This document shows, one piece after another, positions 2,275-27,979 of a stretch of DNA of 32,000 nucleotides (position 1 is its first letter; every line of letters starts with the position of its first letter). The translations under genes were made by a program, and so were the position numbers. This DNA is from Saccharolobus solfataricus (lineage in GTDB: Archaea > Thermoproteota > Thermoprotei_A > Sulfolobales > Sulfolobaceae), in the NCBI RefSeq assembly GCF_900079115.1, contig NZ_LT549890.1, forward strand, positions 2,850,001 through 2,882,000, written 5' to 3'. The notes beneath the pieces are model-generated. The model was not told the DNA's origin and did no database searches. It was given only the letters and a program-made list of their open reading frames with translations.

Positions 2275-3332
2275 TGCTTTGTGGATTGCTTCAGAATTGT
2301 ACAAAAAGTTTATAAATTATTCGTTTAAGTATTACCTATGGAAAAGAGTAAGTACAAGAGGGACTGGAGCAAGTACGACGAGAACGTCATTACTAGATAT
2401 AAGTTGATGTTCCCCTTCTACGTATTCGAACATTGGTGGGACTTATTAGCAGAGGAGAACAGGAACGCTAGGACAAAGTATAAAGCTCCGAAGGAGTTCG
2501 ACGAATTCCTAGCCTTCCTCCACATCTTCCTACCTTACAGAGCAATAGAAGGAGTATTAAGAGCCTTAGAACAATTGAAGATCATCCCCACAAGCCTCGA
2601 TTACTCAACAATATGGAAGAGAGTGAGGAACATGAAAATAACCTTCCCCGAGGCAAGTGACGAACTTGAAGTAATTGCAGACGCTACAGGCATTAGCACA
2701 AACACGGGAGGACAATACATTGTTGCCAAGTGGGGTAAGACTAGGGATTCAAAATTCCTCAAGATCGAGATAGTAATGGACAATAACGAATTCAACGTGA
2801 TAAACGCTGAGGTCACTAGCAACGAGGTTGAAAGCGCTGTAAAAACAGTTAAGGATCTTCAAGATAAGGGAAAGAAGGTCAAGAAGTTTTATGGAGATAA
2901 GACATATGACGCCAATGAGGTTTACAAGACCGGAGTTGAGGTTGTAGTTCCTCCCAAGAAGAACGCTTCTACTAAAAGGGGCCATCTTGCTAGACGTAAG
3001 GCTGTGCGGGAGTTTAGGAAGTTGGGTTATGATCGTTGGAGGGAGGAGAAGGGTTATGGCGTTAGGTGGAGGGTCGAGTCCTTGTTCTCTGCGGTGAAGC
3101 GTACTTTTGGGGAATCGGTTAGGGCAACAAGTTTTGCTGGACAAGTAGTTGAGGCTAAGCTCAAGTTCTGGGCTTACGCGTGGATGGTTCACTTGGCGAA
3201 TTCTGTAGTCGGTAGGGCTCCGGGCATTAGGGTGTAAGCTTGAGAGGAACGTTGAAATAAATATTAATTACTGAAAAATTAGTGTTATACAATATCGTTT
3301 TAATGAGACAAATTGAACAAATCAACAAAGTA
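2275..3332 (+). mobile_element. ISC1058-type IS5-family insertion sequence, exactly 1058 bp
   Basis: Imperfect terminal inverted repeats: TGCTTTGTGGATTGCTTCA... at the left end versus the reverse complement of the right end, TACTTTGTTGATTTGTTCA... (about 15/19 identical). It has a flanking 9-bp direct repeat and a single 299-aa DDE transposase ORF. The element name is inferred from its length and from the Sulfolobus IS nomenclature recalled from memory. Confidence 0.85.
2338..3237 (+). CDS. IS5-family DDE transposase (ISC1058-type)
   Basis: 299 aa. Candidate catalytic positions lie in ..VIADATGIS.., ..FYGDKTYDANE.. and ..RWRVESLFSAVKRTFGE.. (the IS5-type E-containing motif). The ORF lies inside the IR-bounded element. 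Confidence 0.9.
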   Translation: MEKSKYKRDWSKYDENVITRYKLMFPFYVFEHWWDLLAEENRNARTKYKAPKEFDEFLAFLHIFLPYRAIEGVLRALEQLKIIPTSLDYSTIWKRVRNMKITFPEASDELEVIADATGISTNTGGQYIVAKWGKTRDSKFLKIEIVMDNNEFNVINAEVTSNEVESAVKTVKDLQDKGKKVKKFYGDKTYDANEVYKTGVEVVVPPKKNASTKRGHLARRKAVREFRKLGYDRWREEKGYGVRWRVESLFSAVKRTFGESVRATSFAGQVVEAKLKFWAYAWMVHLANSVVGRAPGIRV

Positions 3333-3341
3333 TCAGAATGA
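3333..3341. repeat. right copy of the 9-bp target-site duplication TCAGAATGA
   Basis: Identical to 2266-2274 and immediately follows the right IR. Confidence 0.75.
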
Positions 3342-3429
3342 CAAAAGTTTATATACAATGGTAAAACATAATTATATTTGGTGATACCTGACGAAAGTAA
3401 CTTATATTCTCTACAAACTTGCAATTTAT

Positions 3430-4398
3430 GTGGCCACATTTTTTGTGGTCATAACAGTAAACTTCATATTACCAAGATTAATGCCAGGAAGCGCTCTTGC
3501 TGTAGTAATATCCTTAATTGAAGGACAGAATGGTGTCGCTGCTACAGCTGGAAGTAGCGCGATAGCCCTTGAAGTAAGCCAGCTTGAAGCTGCATTTGGT
3601 TTAACTCCTGCACCATGGTATGTACAGTATGCGCATTACATACAAGGAATATTTACGCTAAACCTAGGAGCCAGCATAACATATTACCCAACTCCTGTAC
3701 TCTCCATAATTTTAAGCGGACTACCTTGGACATTATTTCTAGTCGTAGTTGGAGCAATCATAGCCTTCTTCCTTGGAAGTTATCTTGGAAGTATAGCCGG
3801 TTTTAACAGAAGAAGTAGAAAAGATTTAGTAATATTAATAATTACATCAATCTTGGCTGCTTTGCCTTCATTCGTTATTTTAATGTATTTAGAAATGTGG
3901 TTATCCGTGCAACATGGAATATTTCTTATAAGCTTCCCAAGCAAGATTAATACTAGTCCCAATTCAATTATGGCCCTTTCAAGATTTTATACACTCCCAA
4001 TAATAGCGTTAATGTTTACATCATTATCGGGATTTGTGCTGGGAATGAGAAATAATATGCTACATACGATTAGAGATAATTATGTAACTTACGCAGAGAT
4101 TCTTGGATTAGATCATAATCGAATTAGAAAGATGGTTTACAAAAACTCATTGTTACCAAATATAACCGCCTTTGCAATAATATTGGGTCTCGCAATAAGC
4201 CAGTCACTGACTGTAGAAGGTCTATTAACGACACCAGGTGTGGGATTCTTCTTCGGGTTAGCATTAACTTCAAAGGATTTACCCCTTCTCCAAGGGATTT
4301 TCTTATTTATCGCAATAATGTTAATACTTTCAATAGCTATAGTAGAAGCAATCTACACTATTCTAGATCCTAGAGCAAGGGTGAGTGAAAGTGAGTAA
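3430..4398 (+). CDS. ABC transporter permease, DppB/OppB-like (N-terminus probably compromised)
   Basis: 322-aa polytopic membrane ORF. The segment ..FILPRLMPGS.. corresponds to the conserved DppB/OppB N-terminal segment. The GTG at 3430 is simply the first start codon after an in-frame TGA at 3382-3384. A 14-nt overlap with the next permease gene indicates an operon. Confidence 0.8.
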   Translation: MATFFVVITVNFILPRLMPGSALAVVISLIEGQNGVAATAGSSAIALEVSQLEAAFGLTPAPWYVQYAHYIQGIFTLNLGASITYYPTPVLSIILSGLPWTLFLVVVGAIIAFFLGSYLGSIAGFNRRSRKDLVILIITSILAALPSFVILMYLEMWLSVQHGIFLISFPSKINTSPNSIMALSRFYTLPIIALMFTSLSGFVLGMRNNMLHTIRDNYVTYAEILGLDHNRIRKMVYKNSLLPNITAFAIILGLAISQSLTVEGLLTTPGVGFFFGLALTSKDLPLLQGIFLFIAIMLILSIAIVEAIYTILDPRARVSESE

Positions 4399-5356
4399 AT
4401 ATTACAATAGAATTAGAAAAGCATTATTTAATAATAAATTTATATTAGCTGGAATTGTAATAATCTTAGTAGACTTTGCGATAGGGATAGTGGGAGCTTT
4501 TTGGACACCGTATCCAGTTTCAGAAACCTTCGGAATTTCTCTTCCTCCTAGTTCCGCTCATATCTTAGGGACTGATGAATTTGGTCATGATGTTCTCTCA
4601 GTGATGATGGCATCTACGCTAACCTCTCTAATTGTAGGAATTTCAGTTGGAGCATTAATTGCAATTATTAGTACGCTAATTGGATTGTTTGGAGGCTACT
4701 ACGGTGGTAAGATAAGTGGTGTAATAATTGATATATTAACTATTACCGCTTTAACTATACCAGGTGTCATCTTATTAGTAATAATAGAAGCGTACTTTAG
4801 AGCTGCTAGTTCGACTATAAATATAACCTTGAGTTACATAATAGTTGTTATAGGACTTGCGATAACTAGTTGGGCTTTCGGTGCCAAGCAAATAAGAGCT
4901 CAGGTCCTTTCTATATCAAAAAGGGATTATATTATAGCTTCAAGATTAATTGGAGAGAAATCTTGGAGAATAATATTTAATCAAATATTACCATCGATAC
5001 TTCCATTAACAGTTGCACAGTTTCTTTTTGGAGTACTATATGGAATCTTATCACTAATTACTGCAGAATTTTGGGGTGTATTGCCAACTAACATAAACAA
5101 TTTAGGAACTATGCTATTCTTTATCTCATCCAACGGAGCTTACCTAAGTAATCAGTGGTGGTGGATATTAGGTGCGATAATACCAATTATGGTATTAGGC
5201 GCTGGTCTAGGGATATTGAATATAGGAATAGACGAGTTTATTGATCCTAGACTAAAAGAGGTTAAACCTAAGGTAATTCCGGAAAAGATTGTTATACTTG
5301 AGGAACAGGAGATAATAGAAGTACCAATGTTAGGAAATTATAAGAATAGAAAATGA
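4385..5356 (+). CDS. ABC transporter permease, DppC/OppC-like
   Basis: 323-aa polytopic membrane ORF. It has an N-terminal TM, an extracellular loop and then five TMs, with a typical ..IDEFIDPRL.. C-terminal segment. It overlaps the upstream permease gene. Confidence 0.85.
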   Translation: MKVSKYYNRIRKALFNNKFILAGIVIILVDFAIGIVGAFWTPYPVSETFGISLPPSSAHILGTDEFGHDVLSVMMASTLTSLIVGISVGALIAIISTLIGLFGGYYGGKISGVIIDILTITALTIPGVILLVIIEAYFRAASSTINITLSYIIVVIGLAITSWAFGAKQIRAQVLSISKRDYIIASRLIGEKSWRIIFNQILPSILPLTVAQFLFGVLYGILSLITAEFWGVLPTNINNLGTMLFFISSNGAYLSNQWWWILGAIIPIMVLGAGLGILNIGIDEFIDPRLKEVKPKVIPEKIVILEEQEIIEVPMLGNYKNRK

Positions 5357-9490: not shown

Positions 9491-9685
9491 TCAATTCGGG
9501 TTTACATCTCTCATCTGGTAGGCAGACGAGAGGGCCAGAGACCCCCTCCCGTTTAAATTCATAACTGCAATAACATCACGATCATTCTCATAACCGCATG
9601 AACACCTAAACCAACAATATCCCCTTTCTTCCATCCTTCTACCACACCTAGGGTTAGGAGTATGGTCGGTAGTATTTCTGAAGCT
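9491..9685 (-). pseudogene. C-terminal remnant of an IS200/IS605-family TnpB (OrfB)
   Basis: Translation is ..[48 protein letters not shown]... This matches the TnpB C-terminal zinc-finger region plus the RuvC-III motif (CPxCG...CxxCG...DRDxNAAxNI). The upstream part is separated by the IS110-type element, and most of the gene is missing. Confidence 0.65.
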
Positions 9686-10729
9686 AAGTCTTCGGTTTCC
9701 GGCGTGACCGACCCCTACTGTCGGACTGAACATTGTGAGAAAATCCACCCATATAGGTGTGACAAGGAGGTAGGGGTCCTAGGAATAGACGTGTCAAAAG
9801 ATAATTTAATCACGAGCAGGGGAGGAAAATACGAGAACAACCTAAAAGGCTATGAGAAAATCCTCGATATGAAGCCTTGCACGATAGTCCTAGAGCCCAC
9901 CGGAGTATACTCAATAAAGCCTTCCCAATACTTCAAGGAAAAAGGAATAAGAGTACTACAAGTAAGCCCAAACGTGCTATCAAGGGAAAAGGACTTCAGG
10001 GAAAAGAAAACAGATTTTTACGACGCAGAAAAATTAGAAAACATGGTCGACAAGGCAAAGGAGTACGAGTATAACGTCCTTAGAGAACTCGTAACTCTAT
10101 ACCTGTTCTTAAAGGACATGGAAGTAAAACAAAAGAACAGACTAAAGAGAGCACTATTCCTAGTAAGCGACAACGACAAGATAAATAAGGAGAGATTGGA
10201 AAGACTAGCAAGCGGAGACTTCGCACAAGAAGTACTCTACCAACTAGAATACACGCCAATAGTACTTGAAGAAGTCAAAATACTGGCTAAGGCCCTCTTT
10301 GAGACGCAAGAGAAGTTAAAAGAGGTCAAGGAGATGATAGAGAGCCAAGTACCGGAAGACCACGTCCTACTGACGATTCCGGGAGTTGGGAAGCTTGCTG
10401 CAGGGATAATCATTGGCGTTGTAGGTGATATTAGGCGCTTCCCTAAGCCTGAGTCTTTCGTAGCTTATTGCGGTCTAGATCCGGTAGTGGAGAGGAGCGG
10501 TAAGGCGGTGGTAAGTAAGGGAATCTCAAGGAGGGGTAACAAGTATTTGCGCAGCCTTTTCTACTTTCTTGCGCAGATGAACTGTTCAAAGAACCCGACC
10601 TTATTGAGGTTTTACGAGTCTCATAGGAATAGACTTCACGGTAGGAAGTTATACACTGCCTTGGCGAGAAAGTTGGCTAAGGTTGTGTGGAGCGTTTGGT
10701 ATAATAATAAGCCTTATGAGCCCAAGTGA
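9662..10729 (+). CDS. IS110-family (DEDD) transposase
   Basis: The N-terminal ..[11 protein letters not shown].. is the hallmark IS110 motif. The C-terminal half has ..[24 protein letters not shown].. and ..[13 protein letters not shown]...RGNKYLR... The annotated ATG at 9662 lies outside the inferred element boundary, so the true start is probably internal, for example GTG 9704. Confidence 0.85.
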
Positions 10730-12769: not shown

Positions 12770-14665
12770 ATGTCTAGGCGTAGATTATACAAGGCGATAT
12801 CTAGAACAGCAATAATAATAATTGTAGTAGTAATCATAATTGCAGCAATTGCTGGAGGTCTTGCAGCATATTATAGCTCTAGCAAACCACCCGCTACCAG
12901 TACGAGTTTAACCAGTACGAGTAGCAGTTTATCCGTGACGACTTCTTCTACAACTTCTACCTTATCTTCTATTACGACAACGACGTCAACTGCTTCATCA
13001 TATGTAGTAGACTTTATAAATCCGTGGGGTGCTGAAGACCCTGTAGGACTAAAATGGATTGGAGGAAATTTCTCAATTTACTACCCTGGCTATTCAGTGC
13101 AATTCACATCATTACCAGGAGCTAGTGGTGTAGAGGAGAGGTATGTTGTAATTAACGATATTGAGGCTGGTAAGCTACAGGGTATCTTTTGGGCTCATGG
13201 AGGCCCAGAAGTACTTTCCTATGTGGAACTATTACCTAGCCCCCACGATTTATACAATATGACCCCACTGTTAGCCCAAGAGGGATTATTCCAGAAGGGT
13301 GTCACGGAAGCACTTATGGCTATATCTTATAATGGTACAATATTCGGCTCTCCAACAAACGTGCACAGAGCAGAGGAGTTATACTTCAATCCTCAAATCC
13401 TTAAGAAATACAATTTACCAATTCCTACCAATTTAAGTTTACTAATCTATGATACTCAACAATTAGAAGCACATGGAATAAATCCGTGGGCAATGTCTGG
13501 CGCTGAAGGTGGATATGAACAATTACATTTGTGGTTCGCAATATTCCTATCTGTAGCTGCGCAATACTATGGAGCTGCAGGAGCTGCTAAATTATCAAAT
13601 GAGTTAATGTATGGAGTGCTTAACTTAAATAACGCAACAGTTCAAAAGATTATTAACGAAACTGATAACGTATTCTTGCAGTTTGTAGGTCAGAACGCTG
13701 TAATTCCAAGCTGGCAAAGTCAATCTATATGGTCCGCTTTAGCATTGGTAATAAAGGGACAAACTGTATTCGAAGCTGGTGGCAATTGGCTTGCTGAATA
13801 TGCAGCAATATGGTACAATACTACTACTTATCCTGCGACACAGCCATATCTAAGCTGGTCCAATGTCACATTAATGGCAATGCCATTCCCTGGTACACAA
13901 GGTATTTACGTTATAGATATGGACTCTGTTGCAATACCTACTGTTAATAATCCGCAAGAACAAGCAGCTATAAACTTCGCAAAATTCTGGACTTCGTATG
14001 AAGGGCAGAAAATATGGACGTATTACAAGGGTGTGTCAGTATGGGCTAATTCAACAGATTACTATGCTACTCCAATGCAGTGGTATGATTATCAATCTTT
14101 ACTAAATACTCCGCCTCAGAACTTCACATGGGCGTTCGCTGATGGTACACTATTTGATGATGTGTTCTACTTCCTCATAGCACAAGAACTGAACTTGCAG
14201 GAGCAAGGTTCATCATATATTCCCACATTTAACGCAGCTCTATTCAAAGCTGAAAATATGACATTCCATGAATGGCAAATAGCTGCGAAAGATGGTTTCG
14301 GCTTCGTAGGACAAAGAGGAAATCCATTTGGTGATTATCTACCACCATGGGTTAATCCAAGTACTTACACATATAATTCAAGCTATACACCATCATTCTT
14401 ACTAACACCACCTCATTACTTATTACCATACTTAAAGAAACTTGGACAACAGCAAGATGCTAATAAGGTTAATGGTATAAATTACTATATTATCAATAGT
14501 GTCAATTTGCTACCATATCCATTGCTAATTGTACTAATGGTATATTTGGATCAAACTAGATATAAATATATTATAAATACGTTCGTAAATAAGATAAACT
14601 TTTTTTCGAATGTATTTTTATCTAAATTTTTAATCTCAAATTCTACTTTATACTTAGGTGTTTAA
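12770..14665 (+). CDS. araS: sugar (arabinose)-binding protein of a CUT1-type ABC transporter
   Basis: 631 aa. N-terminus: MSRRRLYKA|ISRTAIIIIVVVIIIAAIAGG, a class III (type IV pilin-like) signal as described for Sulfolobus sugar-binding proteins. This is followed by a roughly 45-aa Ser/Thr-rich linker and then a large solute-binding domain. It is the first gene of a 4-gene transporter operon. The position a few genes after fucA1 fits the SSO3066-3069 locus as I recall it. Confidence 0.85.
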   Translation: MSRRRLYKAISRTAIIIIVVVIIIAAIAGGLAAYYSSSKPPATSTSLTSTSSSLSVTTSSTTSTLSSITTTTSTASSYVVDFINPWGAEDPVGLKWIGGNFSIYYPGYSVQFTSLPGASGVEERYVVINDIEAGKLQGIFWAHGGPEVLSYVELLPSPHDLYNMTPLLAQEGLFQKGVTEALMAISYNGTIFGSPTNVHRAEELYFNPQILKKYNLPIPTNLSLLIYDTQQLEAHGINPWAMSGAEGGYEQLHLWFAIFLSVAAQYYGAAGAAKLSNELMYGVLNLNNATVQKIINETDNVFLQFVGQNAVIPSWQSQSIWSALALVIKGQTVFEAGGNWLAEYAAIWYNTTTYPATQPYLSWSNVTLMAMPFPGTQGIYVIDMDSVAIPTVNNPQEQAAINFAKFWTSYEGQKIWTYYKGVSVWANSTDYYATPMQWYDYQSLLNTPPQNFTWAFADGTLFDDVFYFLIAQELNLQEQGSSYIPTFNAALFKAENMTFHEWQIAAKDGFGFVGQRGNPFGDYLPPWVNPSTYTYNSSYTPSFLLTPPHYLLPYLKKLGQQQDANKVNGINYYIINSVNLLPYPLLIVLMVYLDQTRYKYIINTFVNKINFFSNVFLSKFLISNSTLYLGV

Positions 14666-14668
14666 CTT

Positions 14669-15526
14669 ATGAGGAAGGGAGCTATCCTAATGTCTATACC
14701 GGGATTCATATTTGCAGCTTTTTTGATATACTTATTGGTTCTAAATGTTTACTTTTCACTTTTGAATTGGTCATTATTTAATTTACACCCAACTTTTGCG
14801 GGTTTAGGCACGTATCAGACTTTATTTTCAGAATACTTTTTTAGTTTGGCGGTTACTCATACAGTTGTTTATACAATAGCCGCTGTTGCAATAGGTAATA
14901 TACTGGGAATCCTGGGAGCTGGAATTTTATATTTTTTAAAGAGCAATGTGAGAAGAGCCATTTACCTATCTGTATTTTTGTATCCATTAGCTGTACCTTC
15001 TTCTACTTACGCGATAACTTGGCAGTGGTTATTTAATCCGCAAACTGGTATTAACTTAGTCTTGAGAATATTCCACTTCCCAAATATAATTTGGCTAACC
15101 ACACAACCCACTATTTATGCAGGGATGATAATTATAGAAACATGGGCATATACTGGGTTAGCGGTGCTATTCTTCCTTGCTTCGTTTATGAGTGTTGATA
15201 AATCCATTATTGAGGCAGCTAAAATAGATGGTGCAAACAATTTTTATCTATTATTTAGAATCATATTACCAAACTCAATGAATGGTTTAATAGTATCTAC
15301 AGCTCTTCTATTTCTATTCTCATTCAGAATATTTACTGTACCATTTACTATAGGAGGACCTACAAATCCAAATATGATGAGTCTAGTAGAATACATTTAC
15401 ATTTTGTTTAGTACTGAATACTTCTCCCTATCTTCAGCGTTGTCGTCTTTAGTGGCATTAATAGCGGCAATAGTAATTATTCCTTACGCTATACTCGGTT
15501 TAAAAAGGTGGGTATTTAGGAGGTGA
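14669..15526 (+). CDS. araT: sugar ABC transporter permease (MalF/CUT1-type)
   Basis: 285-aa, 6-TM ORF with the EAA loop ..IEAAKIDGANNFYLLFRIILP... It starts 3 nt after the araS stop. Confidence 0.85.
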   Translation: MRKGAILMSIPGFIFAAFLIYLLVLNVYFSLLNWSLFNLHPTFAGLGTYQTLFSEYFFSLAVTHTVVYTIAAVAIGNILGILGAGILYFLKSNVRRAIYLSVFLYPLAVPSSTYAITWQWLFNPQTGINLVLRIFHFPNIIWLTTQPTIYAGMIIIETWAYTGLAVLFFLASFMSVDKSIIEAAKIDGANNFYLLFRIILPNSMNGLIVSTALLFLFSFRIFTVPFTIGGPTNPNMMSLVEYIYILFSTEYFSLSSALSSLVALIAAIVIIPYAILGLKRWVFRR

Positions 15527-19310: not shown

Positions 19311-20072
19311 TTAGAAAGTCGTTCCTCCTAATATATCCAGCAAGACTTCAAGTCCGTAAGTAGTAGCTATGCCAATAAATAGCCAAGTCCAGAACCTGGC
19401 CTTAAATCCACCTAGTAATGATGCGGCATTTATGTTAATTCTTATCATAACGAATACTAGGGAAGCTGAAGCAACTACGTTAAGAAATGCTAGGAATATC
19501 TCGTTTGAAATTCCAAGATAATATATTGAAGCCCCAAGGGTAGTAGGTAGACCAGCTAGTAGGGATAATGGTATCAGAAACTTTAATCCCATGGTTCTTT
19601 TGGACATCATTGCTGGTGACGATATGGCAAATCCCTCTGTCGCGTTATGGACTGCAAAGCCTATTGTAAAAGCCCAAGCTAAAGGAACTGATCCAGACAA
19701 TAATGCAGCGGCTATAGCAAATCCCTCCCCTATATTATGAAATCCTAGAGCGCTCGCCACAACAACTGGTAACCCTTCCCCACTTGGGCTTTTTTCGAGG
19801 AGACTTAAAAGTAACCATGTCCCTAATAGCCCTATTGAAGTTAAGATAAGGGCAATGGTGAAATCTGGGTAATCTTTAGCTGATAAGAAATTTGTAACTA
19901 TTTCTTCAGCTCCCGAACCAGTATCTAATGCTAAATACGAGAGTATTCCTCCAGTAAATGCTCCCAGATATCCAATTGTTGTTTTGCTGAATTTCCCTTT
20001 GGATATTATTATTGCACCTATAGCTACCGTACCTCCCGCTATTAGACCTAAAAGGATCGGGAAGTAATTCAT
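19311..20072 (-). CDS. ZIP-family divalent metal transporter (ZupT-like)
   Basis: 253 aa, about 8 TM, with the paired ZIP motifs HNIGEGFAIAAA and HNATEGFAISSP. Confidence 0.85.
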   Translation of the reverse strand: MNYFPILLGLIAGGTVAIGAIIISKGKFSKTTIGYLGAFTGGILSYLALDTGSGAEEIVTNFLSAKDYPDFTIALILTSIGLLGTWLLLSLLEKSPSGEGLPVVVASALGFHNIGEGFAIAAALLSGSVPLAWAFTIGFAVHNATEGFAISSPAMMSKRTMGLKFLIPLSLLAGLPTTLGASIYYLGISNEIFLAFLNVVASASLVFVMIRININAASLLGGFKARFWTWLFIGIATTYGLEVLLDILGGTTF

Positions 20073-20150
20073 TTCTTTTCGCCATGTCGTAATTGTATAA
20101 AGAAACTTATAAGCTTATCTATTATATCAATTATACAGGTTAAAATAGAG

Positions 20151-20465
20151 GTGAACTCACCCCGCCCTTAGGACGGGGCATCTCCACCTCGCGGTGAAGA
20201 TTTCCTGCTTCTCAGATTAACCTCGATCCCCATAGCGGAGGTTCCAACGAACTGTTCTGTAATGCCCCGTGTGGAAGAGAGGTTACGGAGGGTTTTCTCT
20301 CCACAGGCTTAAGATCCCCCAGTCCCGATGGTACCGACCCAGCTCTTTCAGCCGAGGTCTAAGAAAATTTTGACATATAACTTTAAAAAACGTTTCTATA
20401 AGGGGGCTATCCATCCCTCACAGAAGGGGACTTTCGCCCCCTTAACCCCCGTTAGAGTTAAAGAA
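20151..20465 (+). mobile_element. GC-rich ~315-bp non-coding element (locus A); probable TnpB-less IS200/IS605-derived element
   Basis: It is homologous end to end with 27291-27612 on the opposite strand. Frame-shifted translation gives ..DFLLLRLTSIPIAEVPTNCSV../..CNAPCGR.., resembling a degraded tnpB 3' end. It ends in a conserved hairpin module: GGGGGCTATCCATCCCTCACAGAAGGGGACTTTCGCCCCCTTAACCCCCG. Confidence 0.5.
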
Positions 20466-20607
20466 TTTCGTAAAAACTTGTGAGGTAATATATCAACTAT
20501 TTACTACCTTTATTGCTAATTTGAAATACTTTATTAGTTTAAGGCTATAGATATGAGCACCATACATCATGCATTATTTTTAAGAAAAATTACTAAGTAT
20601 AAACTCA

Positions 20608-23850: not shown

Positions 23851-23997
23851 ATGAAGACTAAAGTACGTGTTGGCAAAAAATTAACAATTCATATCCCTAA
23901 AGGTATTGCAGAGGAACTTAACATAAGAGAAGGGGATATATTGGGAGTGTTCTCATGCAGTCATCTTATTCGATATCATATAGTAAAATTAAATTAG
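23851..23997 (+). pseudogene. AbrB/SpoVT-type (VapB-like antitoxin) gene truncated by a MITE
   Basis: MKTKVRVGKKLTIHIPKGIAEELNIREGDIL is a typical swapped-hairpin AbrB N-terminus. From codon 32 the frame runs into MITE sequence and stops at 23995-23997. Confidence 0.55.
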
Positions 23998-24272
23998 GTT
24001 AGAAATTTTCATAATTAGTCGTTTCGATCTAGATGTAGCTAAGGAATTAGAACGTGAAAAACAGCCTCTGAAAAGGGTTTATGTGGGAGGGTTATGAAAT
24101 CTTTTTGTGGTAGTACTAGAATGAACCTCGTAAACTCTTGCACATAAGCTTTTCTAAAATAATGTCTCTGTTCAAATTTCTATATCTTAAACGTTAAATG
24201 AGCGTTTTCCCATATTACTCCAATATTTTTACAAACATTTTTTGAATTTCATGACTGTTTGAGAACACTGCC
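23943..24272 (+). mobile_element. 330-bp non-autonomous (MITE-like) deletion derivative of ISC1173
   Basis: The first ~210 bp are nearly identical by eye to the left end of the ISC1173 copy at 24515. It ends in a degenerate copy of the IR (..CATGACTGTTTGAGAACACTGCC) and has no transposase ORF. Confidence 0.75.
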
Positions 24273-24403
24273 AATTATAGTACTGCTTCTTAAGTAATAC
24301 ATAAATATTGAAGTATTTAGTAAGATTTTTACTTTAAATTTTAGCTAGTTGTCAGATAGTTATAAACTTTAATTGCTCAATTTTTATGATATTTCGAAGT
24401 GGA

Positions 24404-24455
24404 TTATTTCTGGAAATAGATTTTGGGTCTATCGTTCAGGGCGGGGAGAAGTCAG
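24404..24455 (+). repeat. decayed copy (locus D) of the IS200/IS605-type right-end module
   Basis: TTCTGGAAATAGATTTTGGGTCTATCGTTCAGGGCGGGGAGAAGTCAG aligns with the minus strand of 9427-9475 (..TCTGGAAGGGGAACCATCGCCCTTCCAGGGCGGTGAGAAAGTCAG). The last ~22 nt are nearly identical. Confidence 0.45.
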
Positions 24456-24506
24456 AATATAAGTTGGCGAATTGCTTTTCTTTATGGAGTTTTGATAAAG
24501 ATTGAT

Positions 24507-24514
24507 AATACGTG
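24507..24514. repeat. left copy of the 8-bp target-site duplication AATACGTG of ISC1173
   Basis: An identical octamer lies at 25688-25695, directly flanking the IRs. Confidence 0.85.
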
Positions 24515-25687
24515 GGGAGTGTTCTCATGCAGTCATCTTATTCGATATCATATAGTAAAATTAAATCAGGCTAGAAATTTTCACAATTAGTCGTTTCGAT
24601 CGAGATGCAGCCAATGAATTAGAACATGAAAACAGCCTCTGAAAAAGCTTATGTGCGAGGGTTGCGAGATTTTTTGTGAGGGTTACCAGGATGAACCTCG
24701 TAACCCTCGCACAATTAATACTTATGATTCTAAGAAATTTAAATCTTAAGCCGAGAAAGTACGAGCTAAAGGATATTGCATTAGCATTAGCAGCCTACTC
24801 CTTGGGAGTTCAAATCACGAAAACGGGAATCCCACCATCAACCCTATACTACTATTTGAGGAAAGTAGGGATAAGGAGGAGAAGAGAAAGCAGACCAACA
24901 TGCCCATCATGTAACTCTAACAGAGTAGTGAAGAACGGCTCATCTAGAGGGAAAGCAAAATACAAGTGTAAAGCATGTGGAAAGACGTTTTACGACGTCA
25001 CAAGTCATAGAATGGATAGGGAACAGAGGGAGAGAATCTTAAAGGAGTACTTGAACAGGATGAGCATGAGGGCAATATCAAGAGTTGAAGGTAAACCATT
25101 GACTACTGTTTACAGCCTAGTGAGGAGGATTGGGATAAGGGCCTTTACGAATCTAACGATCTTGAAGGGTGAGCTCAAGAATTTCACAGCTAAGTCTACG
25201 GTGTTTGACGAGTTCTGGACTTATTTCCGTGTTAGGCATGGGGTGATGAGGGAGGATTTGTGGATTTGGACTGCTCTTGCTGATGGTGTGCCTTTCTATG
25301 AGTTTGGGGATAGGAGTTATGGGACTTTTCGTTATCTCTTGGGTTGGTTACCTAGGAGTGAGGTAAACTATACTGACTACTATTGTGTTTATCAAGTTCT
25401 CGATAATCGTGTAGCGGGTAAGAAGTATACTTATCTTGTGGAGAGCCATAATTCTTGGTGTAGGTCTCATTTGGCGAGGCTGGCTAGGGATACTAAAGCT
25501 GTTACTAGGAGTGGGAGGATGACGGAGTACAGTTTGGCCTTGTTGAATGTAATGTACCCTCACGTATTCTCAAGGGAGAGAACTCCCTTAAATGAGGCAT
25601 ACTTGAAGGGAGTACAGTATATTAGAGAAAACTTGATATAATTTTACTATATGATATCGAATAAGATGACTGCATGAGAACACTCCC
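24515..25687 (+). mobile_element. ISC1173-type insertion sequence, exactly 1173 bp
   Basis: Near-perfect terminal IRs of about 45-49 bp (GGGAGTGTTCTCATGCAGTCATCTTATTCGATATCATATAGTAAAATTA...), an 8-bp TSD and a single transposase ORF. Confidence 0.9.
24676..25641 (+). CDS. transposase of ISC1173, with an N-terminal C2C2 zinc finger and an IS1-like catalytic region
   Basis: CPSCNSNRVVKNG...KYKCKACGKTF zinc finger. The ..FDEFWTYF....LWIWTALAD....GDRS.. region resembles IS1-type transposases. The real start may be ATG 24691 (MNLVTLAQ..). Confidence 0.85.
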   Translation: MRVTRMNLVTLAQLILMILRNLNLKPRKYELKDIALALAAYSLGVQITKTGIPPSTLYYYLRKVGIRRRRESRPTCPSCNSNRVVKNGSSRGKAKYKCKACGKTFYDVTSHRMDREQRERILKEYLNRMSMRAISRVEGKPLTTVYSLVRRIGIRAFTNLTILKGELKNFTAKSTVFDEFWTYFRVRHGVMREDLWIWTALADGVPFYEFGDRSYGTFRYLLGWLPRSEVNYTDYYCVYQVLDNRVAGKKYTYLVESHNSWCRSHLARLARDTKAVTRSGRMTEYSLALLNVMYPHVFSRERTPLNEAYLKGVQYIRENLI

Positions 25688-25695
25688 AATACGTG
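25688..25695. repeat. right copy of the 8-bp TSD AATACGTG of ISC1173
   Basis: Identical to 24507-24514. Its last 4 nt (CGTG) are the first 4 nt of the ISC1234 left IR. Confidence 0.85.
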
Positions 25696-26925
25696 AGAGT
25701 GTCCGGAATGTAAAAAATTGAATTTTTATTGGCAAGAATAAATTGGTTTCTAGTATTATCTTGGATTAAATTGGAGTAACACTTAAGTTATGGGAGTAGA
25801 GGGTAGTACCATGGCAAGAACATTAAGACACATACCAAACCTGATGTACTACCCTCTTCCCCCAATAGAGGATATGCCGTGGAGGGAAAAATGGTTAACG
25901 GAGATCAAGCCCGTGCTGGACACCATGGATTTGGAGAGGGTTCTGGGCGAGGGTGCGCTGGTTTACCTGAAGTTGTTAATCGTCATGGTGCTCTACTCTT
26001 GCTCCTATAGGGACGCGGTGAAAATGGTCAACGTGAACGTGGTCGTGGCCTGGTTCGTGGGGAGGAAGGTGGGGAAGAGCACGCTGCACGACTTCGTGGG
26101 CAGGTTGTACGGGGTGAGGAAGAAGTTGTTGGAGATTTCCTTCAAGCTTGAGGAGAAGTGCCTACCCAGTTACCTCCCTGCGAGCGCGCATCTCGTGGAC
26201 TTCATGGCGTGGCTAGTGGACTCCTTCCTACTGGACTTACCTCCTGGGAAGAGGAGCGTGGAGACCTTTCGGGAGAAGGCGGAGCTGGAGAGGAGGGAAG
26301 GTAACCTGGAGAGGGCCAGGAAGCTGCTCTCCCTGGGGAGAACCAAGAGGAGGTTCGAGGGAAGGTGGACCAAGAAGAGAGGGGTCTCGCACTACGGGCT
26401 CAAGGCAGTGGCCGTGATCTCCGTCTCCCTCTTCGTGAGGTCCATCACGGTGAAGCCAGCCAACTTCTCGGACAAGAGGTTCAAGTCACCGCTCAAGGGG
26501 ATTAAGATCGCGGACAGGGGATTCTCTCCCTCCCCGACACAGCTCATAGCGCGGGAGAAGCCCTTCACTACCCTGAGGGCCCACGTGGAGTTCTTCGGCA
26601 CCTACCTGAACGCGTTCTGGAGGCCCTACGGGACCACGACCTGGAGGAACGACGTCTTCCTTCACGTCCTGGGAGTGATCTACAACATCAAGATGTTCCT
26701 CGCGATCCAACGGAGGACTCCTCCAGGACGTAGAGCCGTTCAGCTCTGAGACGCGCCTCCTCGCGATCAGGCAACGCTATGCGCGATAGGTAAATCCTCT
26801 CGTCTTGATATTTTTCCATTATAAAGTTTTTCTCGGTTATCCGGGTTTCACCCTTCTGGCAATATTAATATTTATCATTCTGTTTATCTATTCGTTCAGA
26901 TAATTACATTCCGGACACTCTCACG
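25692..26925 (+). mobile_element. ISC1234-type insertion sequence, exactly 1234 bp
   Basis: Perfect terminal IRs of about 22 bp (CGTGAGAGTGTCCGGAATGTAA at the left end, reverse complement at 26904-26925), flanked by TA on both sides. It has a single GC-rich 319-aa ORF. Confidence 0.85.
25790..26749 (+). CDS. transposase of ISC1234 (family recalled as IS5; not verified)
   Basis: It is the only long ORF in the IR-bounded element and is strongly GC3-biased. I could not recognise catalytic motifs with confidence by eye. Confidence 0.7.
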   Translation: MGVEGSTMARTLRHIPNLMYYPLPPIEDMPWREKWLTEIKPVLDTMDLERVLGEGALVYLKLLIVMVLYSCSYRDAVKMVNVNVVVAWFVGRKVGKSTLHDFVGRLYGVRKKLLEISFKLEEKCLPSYLPASAHLVDFMAWLVDSFLLDLPPGKRSVETFREKAELERREGNLERARKLLSLGRTKRRFEGRWTKKRGVSHYGLKAVAVISVSLFVRSITVKPANFSDKRFKSPLKGIKIADRGFSPSPTQLIAREKPFTTLRAHVEFFGTYLNAFWRPYGTTTWRNDVFLHVLGVIYNIKMFLAIQRRTPPGRRAVQL

Positions 26926-27205
26926 TAACAGAAGTTCATAATTAACCTCAATTAATCTCTCGTCATCAAGTTTGATTATCAACGTATCCCTAGGATCAAT
27001 TCCTTGAGAAATCAGTTTCCTCAGGACTTGGAAAGCTATGGTAGATTTACCGCTTCTCCTTATTCCAGATATTGCAATAACGTTAACTCCCTTAAGCAGA
27101 GAGAGAATACGATTTACATAGTCTTCTCTCTATCCATGTTTTATTAAACCTTCCCCAGTAGTTCCAGTCTGTCATGATTTCAAGGAGTTCCTCTTCCACT
27201 AACAT
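26926..27205 (-). pseudogene. AAA_14/DUF4143-type archaeal ATPase, frameshifted and truncated by ISC1234
   Basis: MLVEEELLEIMTDWNYWGRFNKTWIER is followed by a frameshift near 27135. The sequence then reads EDYVNRILSLLKGVNVIAISGIRRSGKSTIAFQVLRKLISQGIDPRDTLIIKLDDERLIEVNYELLL (Walker A GIRRSGKST). It ends abruptly at the IS junction. Confidence 0.6.
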
Positions 27206-27290
27206 TAATATATAGTTGGAAAATTGGTAATTAAATCTTGTCTTGTATGACAAACGTAACTTTCTAGACTCTTTTGTCGTAGCCAAACCC

Positions 27291-27612
27291 TTTATCTTTA
27301 TCGGGGGTTCAAAGGGGGCGGAAGACCCTTTCCGTGAGGGATGGATAGCCCCTTTGTATAAGAAATATCTGTTTTCATCAAATATGTTGATGACAGTCAT
27401 CGACGGGGCAAGCGTCACCGAGACACCTTGGTTAAAGCGAGGGTCAATGAGGTACGCCTCTGTCCTAACCAGTAACGCTAATGGCGTCATGTTTAATGCG
27501 GGGTGGGAGCCACCCTTAGTGCTTGTGGAACTCCGCCTCTACCAGTACTGATGTACTGGCAAGGTGGGGTTATGAAGCAGGAAGCCATGTCCGTTAGGGT
27601 AGGATAGCTCAC
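27291..27612 (-). mobile_element. GC-rich ~322-bp non-coding element (locus B), inverted paralogue of 20151-20465
   Basis: It shares both end points with locus A. The terminal module (plus strand 27301-27352, GGGGGTTCAAAGGGGGCGGAAGACCCTTTCCGTGAGGGATGGATAGCCCC) is highly similar by eye to the reverse complement of 20401-20455. The interior is diverged but alignable (shared TTCCTGCTTC and GGCGGAG(G)TTCCA blocks). Translation gives ..RRSSTSTKGGSHP.., resembling a degraded TnpB TSxxCxxCG region. Confidence 0.5.
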
Positions 27613-27979
27613 ATAACGATTGCTAGATCCAATACGTCGTATAGTTGATTACAATACTTTAGAGATGGTTATTCAATCTCATTACCATCAATTATTAGTT
27701 TTAAATAGGTTAATGATATCGATGCTAGTTCTCTATCGGTGATAATATATGTTATTGGGGTTTGGACTTCGTAGGATTTCATGAATTTGTGGCTAATCCA
27801 TGAAGTTTTAAAATTACTATATTTTAATTGGTGTAGTACGTTGATTGGAAGCAGAAGCTTGCTTCTTATCTTTTTACTTTTTCCTTGCTTTATGTCTTCT
27901 TTTTAAATACATAAATGGCAAAATTCTGAAATAAATAGAAAGGGAAAAACATTTAACTACAGATTTAGAAGAATATCAT

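Follow-up and report, generated by a model that had tools for sequence, protein, structure and literature searches.

Internal-deletion derivatives of insertion sequences (IS) of the IS200/IS605 type move by a single-strand "peel and paste" reaction catalysed by the transposase TnpA, which is supplied in trans. Among the small Sulfolobales elements tied to this group is SMN1, which is said to have been described by Berkner and Lipps in 2007 (J Bacteriol 189:2145). Here we analyse a stretch of 32,000 nucleotides from the chromosome of Saccharolobus solfataricus (NZ_LT549890.1, positions 2,850,001 to 2,882,000, referred to below as the window), which carries a GC-rich block, locus A, and a related block in inverted orientation, locus B. 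On the evidence presented below, locus A is very probably a divergent member of the SMN1 family, derived from an IS200/IS605 element with tnpA and tnpB and mobile in a TnpA-dependent manner.

The published summaries describe SMN1, the "Sulfolobus mobile non-inverted repeat" element, as a 320-bp element without an open reading frame (ORF) (PMC3718332, PMC3839810, PMC1919505). Icelandic strains of S. islandicus are stated to harbour 7-9 copies of it, with the ISC1733 transposase given as a requirement (PMC3718332), and the summaries also record its transposition in S. islandicus REN1H1. The IS605-type elements of S. islandicus that carry both tnpA and tnpB insert at TTTAA (PMC10640517, PMC11043419), have TTTAA as the target-adjacent motif (TAM) and encode a TnpB of 401 aa, and the solo-tnpB elements of the same species have the TAM TTTAT (PMC10640517). 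The right end (RE) of the IS605-type elements terminates in an invariant TTCAC, right after which the guide begins; for SisTnpB7, activity requires the 38/39-nt RE together with ~113 nt that derive from the coding sequence, a scaffold of ~151 nt, and TnpB can use RNA supplied in trans (PMC11043419). In bacteria, PATE-like elements were described in Geobacillus stearothermophilus by Meers et al. (2023); they "often encode omegaRNAs", for which TnpB has to come from elsewhere (PMC10055086).

Locus A is a discrete GC-rich unit with copies elsewhere

An earlier note on this DNA had proposed a discrete GC-rich element at 20151-20465, and these limits proved to be almost exact. The unit occupies 20151-20462 and has a GC content of 52%, compared with ~37% for the window. 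Within it, the block 20151-20360 has 56% GC against a window average of 36.6%, a composition matched by 0.02% of the other 210-nt segments when a GC-rich IS in the window is excluded, and the module 20396-20457 has 57%; the spacer between the two has 17%. Four copies from outside, in the plasmids pARN4 and pHVE14, the Acidianus tailed spindle virus (ATSV) and Sulfolobales HS-7, align with the unit from GTGAAC (at 20151) to ...TTAAA (at 20462) and are divergent outside these limits.

Copies were sought by BLASTN against plasmids and archaeal viruses, and by an element-specific pattern scan of hot-spring metagenomes. The search by BLASTN, which the earlier note had suggested, was productive, and matches came to light in plasmids, a virus and Sulfolobales genomes. 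Over its full length, locus A is 81% identical to the copies in the S. islandicus plasmids pARN4 and pHVE14 and in ATSV and 84% identical to that of HS-7; a further copy, in Sulfolobus sp. UBA167, has 75% identity. The pARN4 and pHVE14 copies measure 321 bp without the TAM; locus A measures 307 bp, and its deletions of 5, 5 and 8 nt lie in the left-end (LE) hairpin and in the inner hairpin. The metagenome scan returned 65 contigs with the element, many of them broken inside it, as repeats are. All of the complete metagenome copies (16/16) read TTTAA followed directly by CTT...GTTCAC, with unrelated flanks and no target duplication. Terminal inverted repeats are absent, and insertion is 3' of a fixed TTTAA in all copies. 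Two pattern scans of IMG/VR gave no match. The window itself holds one copy of the locus A type and one of the locus B type.

Comparison of filled and empty sites indicates that these units are insertions. The pARN4 copy sits between two genes that abut in pHVE14, and thus represents an insertion into pARN4. The orthologous regions upstream of the ZIP-family gene in S. islandicus lack the element, and their homology to the window resumes exactly at 20150. On the LE side, where the sequence between the genes (20463-20607) is divergent from that of S. islandicus, no exact empty site could be reconstructed. Those contigs that encode an identical ZIP protein all carry the element.

The ZIP-family gene starts at 20072 on the minus strand, 79 bp from the end of locus A (20073-20150 lie between), and has the same direction. 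In S. islandicus LAL14/1 (CP003928; L132, 6-1250), this ZIP-upstream region is occupied by another type of IS200/IS605 element, which encodes a solo TnpB of 385 aa, has its LE module at 1198-1246 and lies in the opposite orientation; the region seems to be a repeated landing site. Another contig with the ZIP-upstream site (L124, 1-376, from Logan SRR29706757) carries the 3' part of an HS-7-like SMN1 with 92% identity to the window, and unrelated DNA at the expected position of the LE, which makes it either an assembly chimera or a 5'-truncated copy.

The ends of locus A are those of an ISC1733-like element

In pMGB1, ATV and SMV3, the 60-nt module lies directly upstream of the tnpB or tnpA start. 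The module is therefore the LE and, as read from these alignments, the true orientation of locus A is the window minus strand. On the plus strand, locus A begins with 62 nt that match the other extremity of the SMV3 element (~90% identity to the parent IS), and the occurrence of both matches in one SMV3 element defines an IS of 1,736 bp. Intact relatives of 1,735-1,737 bp have genes for a Y1 transposase of 135 aa (Pfam Y1_Tnp) and for a TnpB of 401 aa, the latter with the Pfam domains OrfB_IS605, Cas12f1-like TNB and HTH_OrfB. We regard the parent as an ISC1733-like IS of the SisTnpB1 type, the name ISC1733 being based on length and gene content.

The view that the unit is a TnpB-less, non-autonomous derivative of an IS200/IS605 element, put forward in the earlier note, is borne out, as both termini match a 1,735-bp IS with tnpA (Y1) and tnpB, and the unit is multi-copy and insertion-polymorphic. 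The comparison with the ends of full-length tnpB elements, also proposed there, gave 85-95% identity for the LE and ~90% for the last 62 nt. The layout proposed there has to be read in the reverse orientation: the "55-nt hairpin module" is the LE, the "AT-rich spacer" corresponds to the former promoter of tnpA, and what was called the "terminal hairpin" belongs to the RE. That hairpin, CCCCGCCCTTAGGACGGGG at 20160-20178, is real and shows compensatory changes across copies. Read on the minus strand, the features are as follows.

20462-20458, minus strand: TAM TTTAA, target DNA just 5' of the LE; 16/16 full copies adjoin TTTAA (or TTAAA/GTTAA)
20457-20396, minus strand: LE, a structured GC-rich module and presumed TnpA binding site; 85-95% identity to the first ~88 nt of the 1,735-bp IS
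20397-20381, minus strand: putative promoter resembling a factor B recognition element (BRE) and TATA box, AGAAACG TTTTTTAAAG; aligned to parental AGAAACC-TTTTTATA, ~30 nt upstream of the tnpA ATG
20380-20361, minus strand: variable spacer
20360-20151, minus strand: GC block, the remodelled tnpB 3' end plus RE, corresponding to the region that encodes omegaRNA or right-end RNA (reRNA); predicted transcription start at ~20360
20201-20180, minus strand: penultimate 9-bp hairpin AUCUUCACC-GCGA-GGUGGAGAU; 98% of cells paired in 17 sequences, one pair changed on both sides
20179-20159, minus strand: subterminal 9-bp RE hairpin CCCCGCCCTTAGGACGGGG; two pairs with compensatory changes
20158-20151, minus strand: RE tail GAGTTCAC, following the subterminal hairpin
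20150-20131, minus strand: flank CTCTATTTTAACCTGTATAA, host DNA upstream of the ZIP-family gene and the would-be guide upon read-through

When folded as DNA, the LE forms an outer 9-bp stem (GGGGGC/GCCCCC) around a short hairpin, with z = -1.35, and the RE hairpins have z = -3.3. Locus A carries no intact gene, as blastx detected only short TnpB codon remnants interrupted by frameshifts and stops, and a Pfam search of the ORFs overlapping it gave no match. The peptides IPIAEVPTNCSV and CNAPCGR, which had been offered as a TnpB C-terminus, turned out to be on the antisense strand with a blastx E of ~10, that is, noise; the true remnants are encoded on the minus strand. There, RSRKSSPRGGDAPS is a 100% match to the TnpB C-terminus (blastx, window 20212-20171), and the HS-7 copy of the element aligns to TnpB aa 372-411 with E = 5e-6. 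From these matches, the ~210-nt GC block is taken to descend from the last ~50 tnpB codons plus the RE.

Several further relatives of the parent were encountered. An intact 1,735-bp ISC1733-like archaeal IS lies at 3325-5059 of a contig labelled Planomonospora alba JCM 9373 (L053), and the LE of an ISC1733-like IS lies at ~4043-4984, at the edge of a contig labelled Streptomyces gamaensis (L022). As these contigs have only 25-29% GC and carry an archaeal IS, they are almost certainly contaminants in the actinobacterial assemblies. Metagenome-assembled genomes of Desulfurococcales and Caldisphaera hold further ISC1733-like elements with internal deletions of independent origin (L049, 65-329, 265 bp, and L016, 3047-3851, 805 bp), whose 3' junctions, at TnpB aa 345 and 372, are near the SMN1 and locus B junctions. 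A third element without an ORF (L100, 4780-5100, reverse strand) has an inner domain with 72% identity over 76 nt to SMN1 and a different right end, ...GGGGTACCTCAC, which hints at a wider set of derivatives of the guide-RNA region.

A candidate promoter precedes the guide-RNA-encoding region

The TATA of locus A aligns with the parental tnpA TATA, and its distance to the deletion junction equals the parental distance to the tnpA ATG. Given this alignment and a GC block that starts where the tnpA ATG would be, a transcript is predicted to run from ~20360 through the block and into the flank. We infer promoter function for the BRE/TATA from the Sulfolobus promoter consensus. The TATA-like element is kept in all SMN1 copies and the spacer downstream of it varies; among SMN1 lineages, the mean pairwise identity is 87% for the GC block and 60% for the spacer. 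Since the deletion joined the guide-RNA region to the tnpA promoter, a transcript of ~210 nt is predicted. The position of the GC block fits that of a guide-RNA gene, as it covers the 3' region of tnpB, ends at the RE terminus and adjoins the flank. The suggestion in the earlier note that the element could still express an omegaRNA-like transcript appears well placed, as the unit keeps remnants of the last ~50 tnpB codons, the presumptive guide-RNA-encoding region.

The 151-nt scaffold of the parent has a four-part fold: a small stem at the 5' end is followed by a long-range CCUGU/GCAGG stem, which encloses a long hairpin, then by two hairpins of 9 bp each, and finally by the tail AGUUCAC. Compensatory changes affect 7/52 pairs across six sequences. 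SMN1 keeps the 5' segment, the long-range CCUGU/GCAGG stem, both 3' hairpins and the tail. At the level of the sequence, the 5' part (AGAGCTGGGTC..GGGACTG..GCCTGTGGA) and the 3' 62 nt are kept, and the central hairpin has given way to a longer one with the same closing stem. In an alignment of 17 sequences from the parent and SMN1, pairing within the two terminal hairpins amounts to 96%, and in three pairs both partners have changed; the observed covariation score was reached by only 1/500 shuffles. Four independent derivatives (SMN1, locus B, L049 and L016) each keep at least the last 42-57 tnpB codons; this retention is suggestive and is partly an ascertainment effect. The flank 20150-20131 and the other guide-like flanks have no second target within the window.

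These features can be assembled into a proposed mechanism. Locus A would be unable to move alone, and the Y1 transposase (TnpA) of a full-length relative would act on it in trans. Excision and insertion would involve single-stranded DNA, and the element would land 3' of TTTAA with no duplication of the target. The retained tnpA promoter would transcribe the ~210-nt scaffold, running into the flanking DNA, and the central hairpin may have expanded once it was free of coding constraint. With the tnpA promoter fused to the scaffold by the deletion, each copy would express a guide against its own empty site, and a resident TnpB might use the SMN1 RNA in trans to cut SMN1-free alleles. As locus A points toward the ZIP-family gene, read-through could also cross the ZIP promoter region.

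Locus B comes from a sister lineage

Locus B had been described as an inverted, end-to-end copy of locus A at 27291-27612. A related inverted element is indeed present, and both limits are true termini (the TAM at 27291-27295 and GCTCAC at 27612), but only the left-end 71 nt are clearly homologous. The repeat finder linked A and B only through a 50-nt inverted repeat (20394-20443 versus 27312-27361, 86% identity), and direct comparison extended the shared left-end module to 71 nt with 83% identity (E = 7e-16). The last 62 nt of the two loci are marginally similar, with 6/500 shuffles scoring as well, and the ~175-nt interior aligned no better than shuffled sequence (144/500). Locus B consists of the following parts.

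27291-27295, plus strand: TAM TTTAT; the solo-tnpB IS of HS-7 (L038) has the same junction, TTTAT followed by CTTAAT
27296-27377, plus strand: LE plus promoter remnant; 91-100% identity in blocks to nt 1-87 of the 1,339-bp L038
27378-27498, plus strand: GC-rich interior, shared only with an ORF-less HS-7 element (L024)
27499-27612, plus strand: solo-tnpB remnant (last ~42 codons) plus RE ...GGATAGCTCAC (...GCTCAC at 27612); 79-84% identity to solo-tnpB 3' ends

The 3' segment is 79-81% identical to the 3' ends of the ATV ORF409 and L038 tnpB genes, and tblastn places TnpB matches at 27483-27607. The interior matched neither TnpB protein nor locus A; its sole relative is an ORF-less HS-7 element (L024), with 69% identity over 252 nt. 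Taken together, the comparisons indicate that locus B is not a second copy of A; it is a derivative of the same kind that arose in the sister lineage of solo-tnpB elements. Its RE hairpin has two mismatches and folds as DNA no better than shuffles (z = +1.6), and this decay makes locus B probably an immobile relic. The LE modules of A and B both have a short-hairpin form that other Sulfolobales genomes commonly carry as well, and a single TnpA type may therefore have served both. The possibility that locus B is the SMN2 element of pMGB1 was considered and rejected, as the two show no similarity. Downstream of locus B, at 27050-27250 on the minus strand, a broken-frame translation (..GVNVIAISGIRRSG..) resembles, by eye, the N-terminus of an archaeal ATPase.

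Alternative interpretations

Several observations weigh against the interpretation of locus A as an SMN1-family element that may carry a guide RNA. The assignment to SMN1 was made by comparison with the published description, in which the size, the host, the presence of copies on plasmids and the connection with ISC1733 agree; identity between the window copy and the 321-bp form amounts to only 81%, and the window copy bears the deletions of 5, 5 and 8 nt; and tblastn detected no tnpA or tnpB gene in the 32-kb window, so that a resident helper is lacking there. We infer the dependence of locus A on TnpA, which is asserted in the literature for SMN1 and ISC1733. In the scaffold, the central ~50 nt of the parent have been exchanged for ~95-105 nt of unrelated sequence, which renders the compatibility of SMN1 with TnpB uncertain. 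Covariation support for the upstream helices of SMN1 is positive and modest, and is thin because the copies are very alike; recognition by TnpA could by itself explain why the two terminal hairpins persist. Other origins for locus A were also weighed. The earlier note had raised the alternative of an unannotated structured noncoding RNA (ncRNA) family, that is, an independent housekeeping or regulatory gene unrelated to transposition. The minus strand does fold better than shuffles (z = -3.8), and GC enrichment is typical of the structural RNAs of thermophiles, but both ends of the unit are the ends of a tnpA- and tnpB-carrying IS, and the copies, each beside TTTAA, are scattered over chromosomes, plasmids and viruses in settings unrelated to one another, with empty sites known. 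Nor did Rfam return a match to a housekeeping or other RNA model, either at the gathering score across the window or beyond noise at E <= 10 for both loci, and ARAGORN found no tRNA; we consider an ncRNA family very improbable. Less probable still is that locus A is part of a conjugative plasmid or a virus that had integrated here. The top database matches, pARN4, pHVE14 and ATSV, would be expected from such a fragment, yet in each case the similarity breaks off exactly where the ~320-bp unit ends, the window has none of the plasmid and virus genes that flank it elsewhere, and the unit in pARN4 is itself an insertion relative to pHVE14.

A more serious alternative accepts an SMN1-type derivative and holds that the GC block is an inert leftover, the element being purely a TnpA substrate with no guide RNA, and we judge the chances of this to be evenly balanced. 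It draws on the replacement of the central part of the experimentally defined scaffold, on the 265-bp L049 derivative, which retains the tnpB 3' end and not the promoter, and on the similarity among copies, which could stem from recent spread and not from selection; in addition, the solo (IS1341-type) tnpB genes of S. islandicus, to whose lineage locus B belongs, give no reRNA transcript (PMC11043419). Inert DNA would not, however, readily account for the retention of the last 42-57 tnpB codons in SMN1, locus B, L049 and L016, which extends far beyond the two terminal hairpins, nor for the persistence of the CCUGU/GCAGG stem and its long enclosed hairpin despite the destroyed coding frame. The GC block is also better conserved than the spacer, and the TATA stands at the parental distance from the junction. 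That SMN1 specifies a functional guide RNA is a credible proposal which we nonetheless hold to be somewhat doubtful. We put forward a little more tentatively still the idea that SMN1 may be a "guide-RNA-only" selfish element, which would parasitise TnpA for movement and TnpB for restoration by homing.

Other mobile elements in the window

A 1,238-bp IS at 25690-26927 is bounded by 33-nt inverted repeats (25690-25722 and 26895-26927) and contains an ORF for a 319-aa DUF772-type transposase at 25790-26749, with 55-62% GC compared with 37% for the window. With a GC content so far above that of the window, this IS seems to have been acquired recently, from a source richer in GC. Next to it, an ORF for an IS1-like transposase occupies 24676-25641, and segments of ~190 nt (23936-24133 and 24508-24703) are duplicated upstream with 73-91% identity. 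An inverted copy of the first ~60 nt of the duplicated segments is found at 25630-25691, and 23936-25691 may be a rearranged or nested IS. A transposase gene of the IS110 family (DEDD) lies at 9662-10729. One weak TnpB-like tblastn match at 9776-9868 was rejected, as it belongs to this IS110-family transposase and not to TnpB; the false signal is attributable to the RuvC-like fold of the IS110 transposase.

Significance and comparison with known systems

The finding is genuine and largely ordinary, since both the element family and the kind of element were known before. To be added to it, from our reading of the sequences, are the orientation and anatomy of locus A, the recognition of locus B as decayed and of a different lineage, and the proposed promoter-plus-guide-RNA reading of SMN1. 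For annotation, A should be entered as an SMN1-family copy and B as a solo-tnpB-derived relic, and neither as an ncRNA gene or a pseudogene. SMN1 offers a natural archaeal case of a TnpB element that has lost the protein and retained a promoter together with the guide-RNA region. If the guide-RNA-only model were true, it could explain the spread of SMN1 through the chromosomes, conjugative plasmids and viruses of the Sulfolobales. Were the RNA functional, SMN1 would provide a compact, thermostable scaffold variant for SisTnpB editing systems and an archaeal example of a guide RNA used in trans, as in the bacterial PATEs; this would extend a known idea and open none, as the general notion of guide-RNA use in trans has already been stated for the bacterial PATE-like elements (PMC10055086).

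Like SMN1, locus A is ~320 bp in its full form, lacks an ORF and terminal inverted repeats, is multi-copy in the Sulfolobales and is tied to ISC1733. It differs in that the window copy is 307 bp long, has small deletions and resides in a Saccharolobus chromosome, and the promoter and guide-RNA reading does not appear in the published summaries of SMN1 (PMC3718332, PMC3839810). With ISC1733 and the SisTnpB1 and SisTnpB7 elements of S. islandicus REY15A (PMC10640517, PMC11043419), locus A shares the same ~88-nt LE including the promoter, the last 62 nt with two hairpins and TTCAC, the TAM TTTAA and the remnants of the TnpB C-terminus. In contrast to these elements, it is without tnpA and ~1.1 kb of tnpB, and its central scaffold hairpin is longer and unrelated.

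The SMN2 element of pMGB1 and SMV1 (PMC3839810) is likewise poor in ORFs, resembles a miniature inverted-repeat transposable element and occurs in Sulfolobus plasmids and viruses, with an IS200-type transposase thought to be its mover; its two ~265-bp copies (pMGB1 14472-14735 and 27375-27635) have no detectable similarity to locus A or B. The closest counterparts of locus B are the solo-tnpB elements of the IS1341 type (ATV ORF409, L038, pNOB8 and pHGQ25), with which it shares the TAM TTTAT, an LE that is 91-100% identical to that of L038, and a final 114 nt that are 79-84% identical to tnpB 3' ends. Unlike these, locus B has no tnpB gene, has a 120-nt interior that matches no TnpB protein and carries a decayed RE hairpin. 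Finally, the PATE-like elements of G. stearothermophilus and the haloarchaeal PATEs are, like locus A, minimal elements that combine the LE and RE of a resident IS605 and are mobilised in trans. The G. stearothermophilus elements belong to another host domain and are unrelated in sequence, whereas in locus A the tnpA promoter appears to have been fused to the scaffold.

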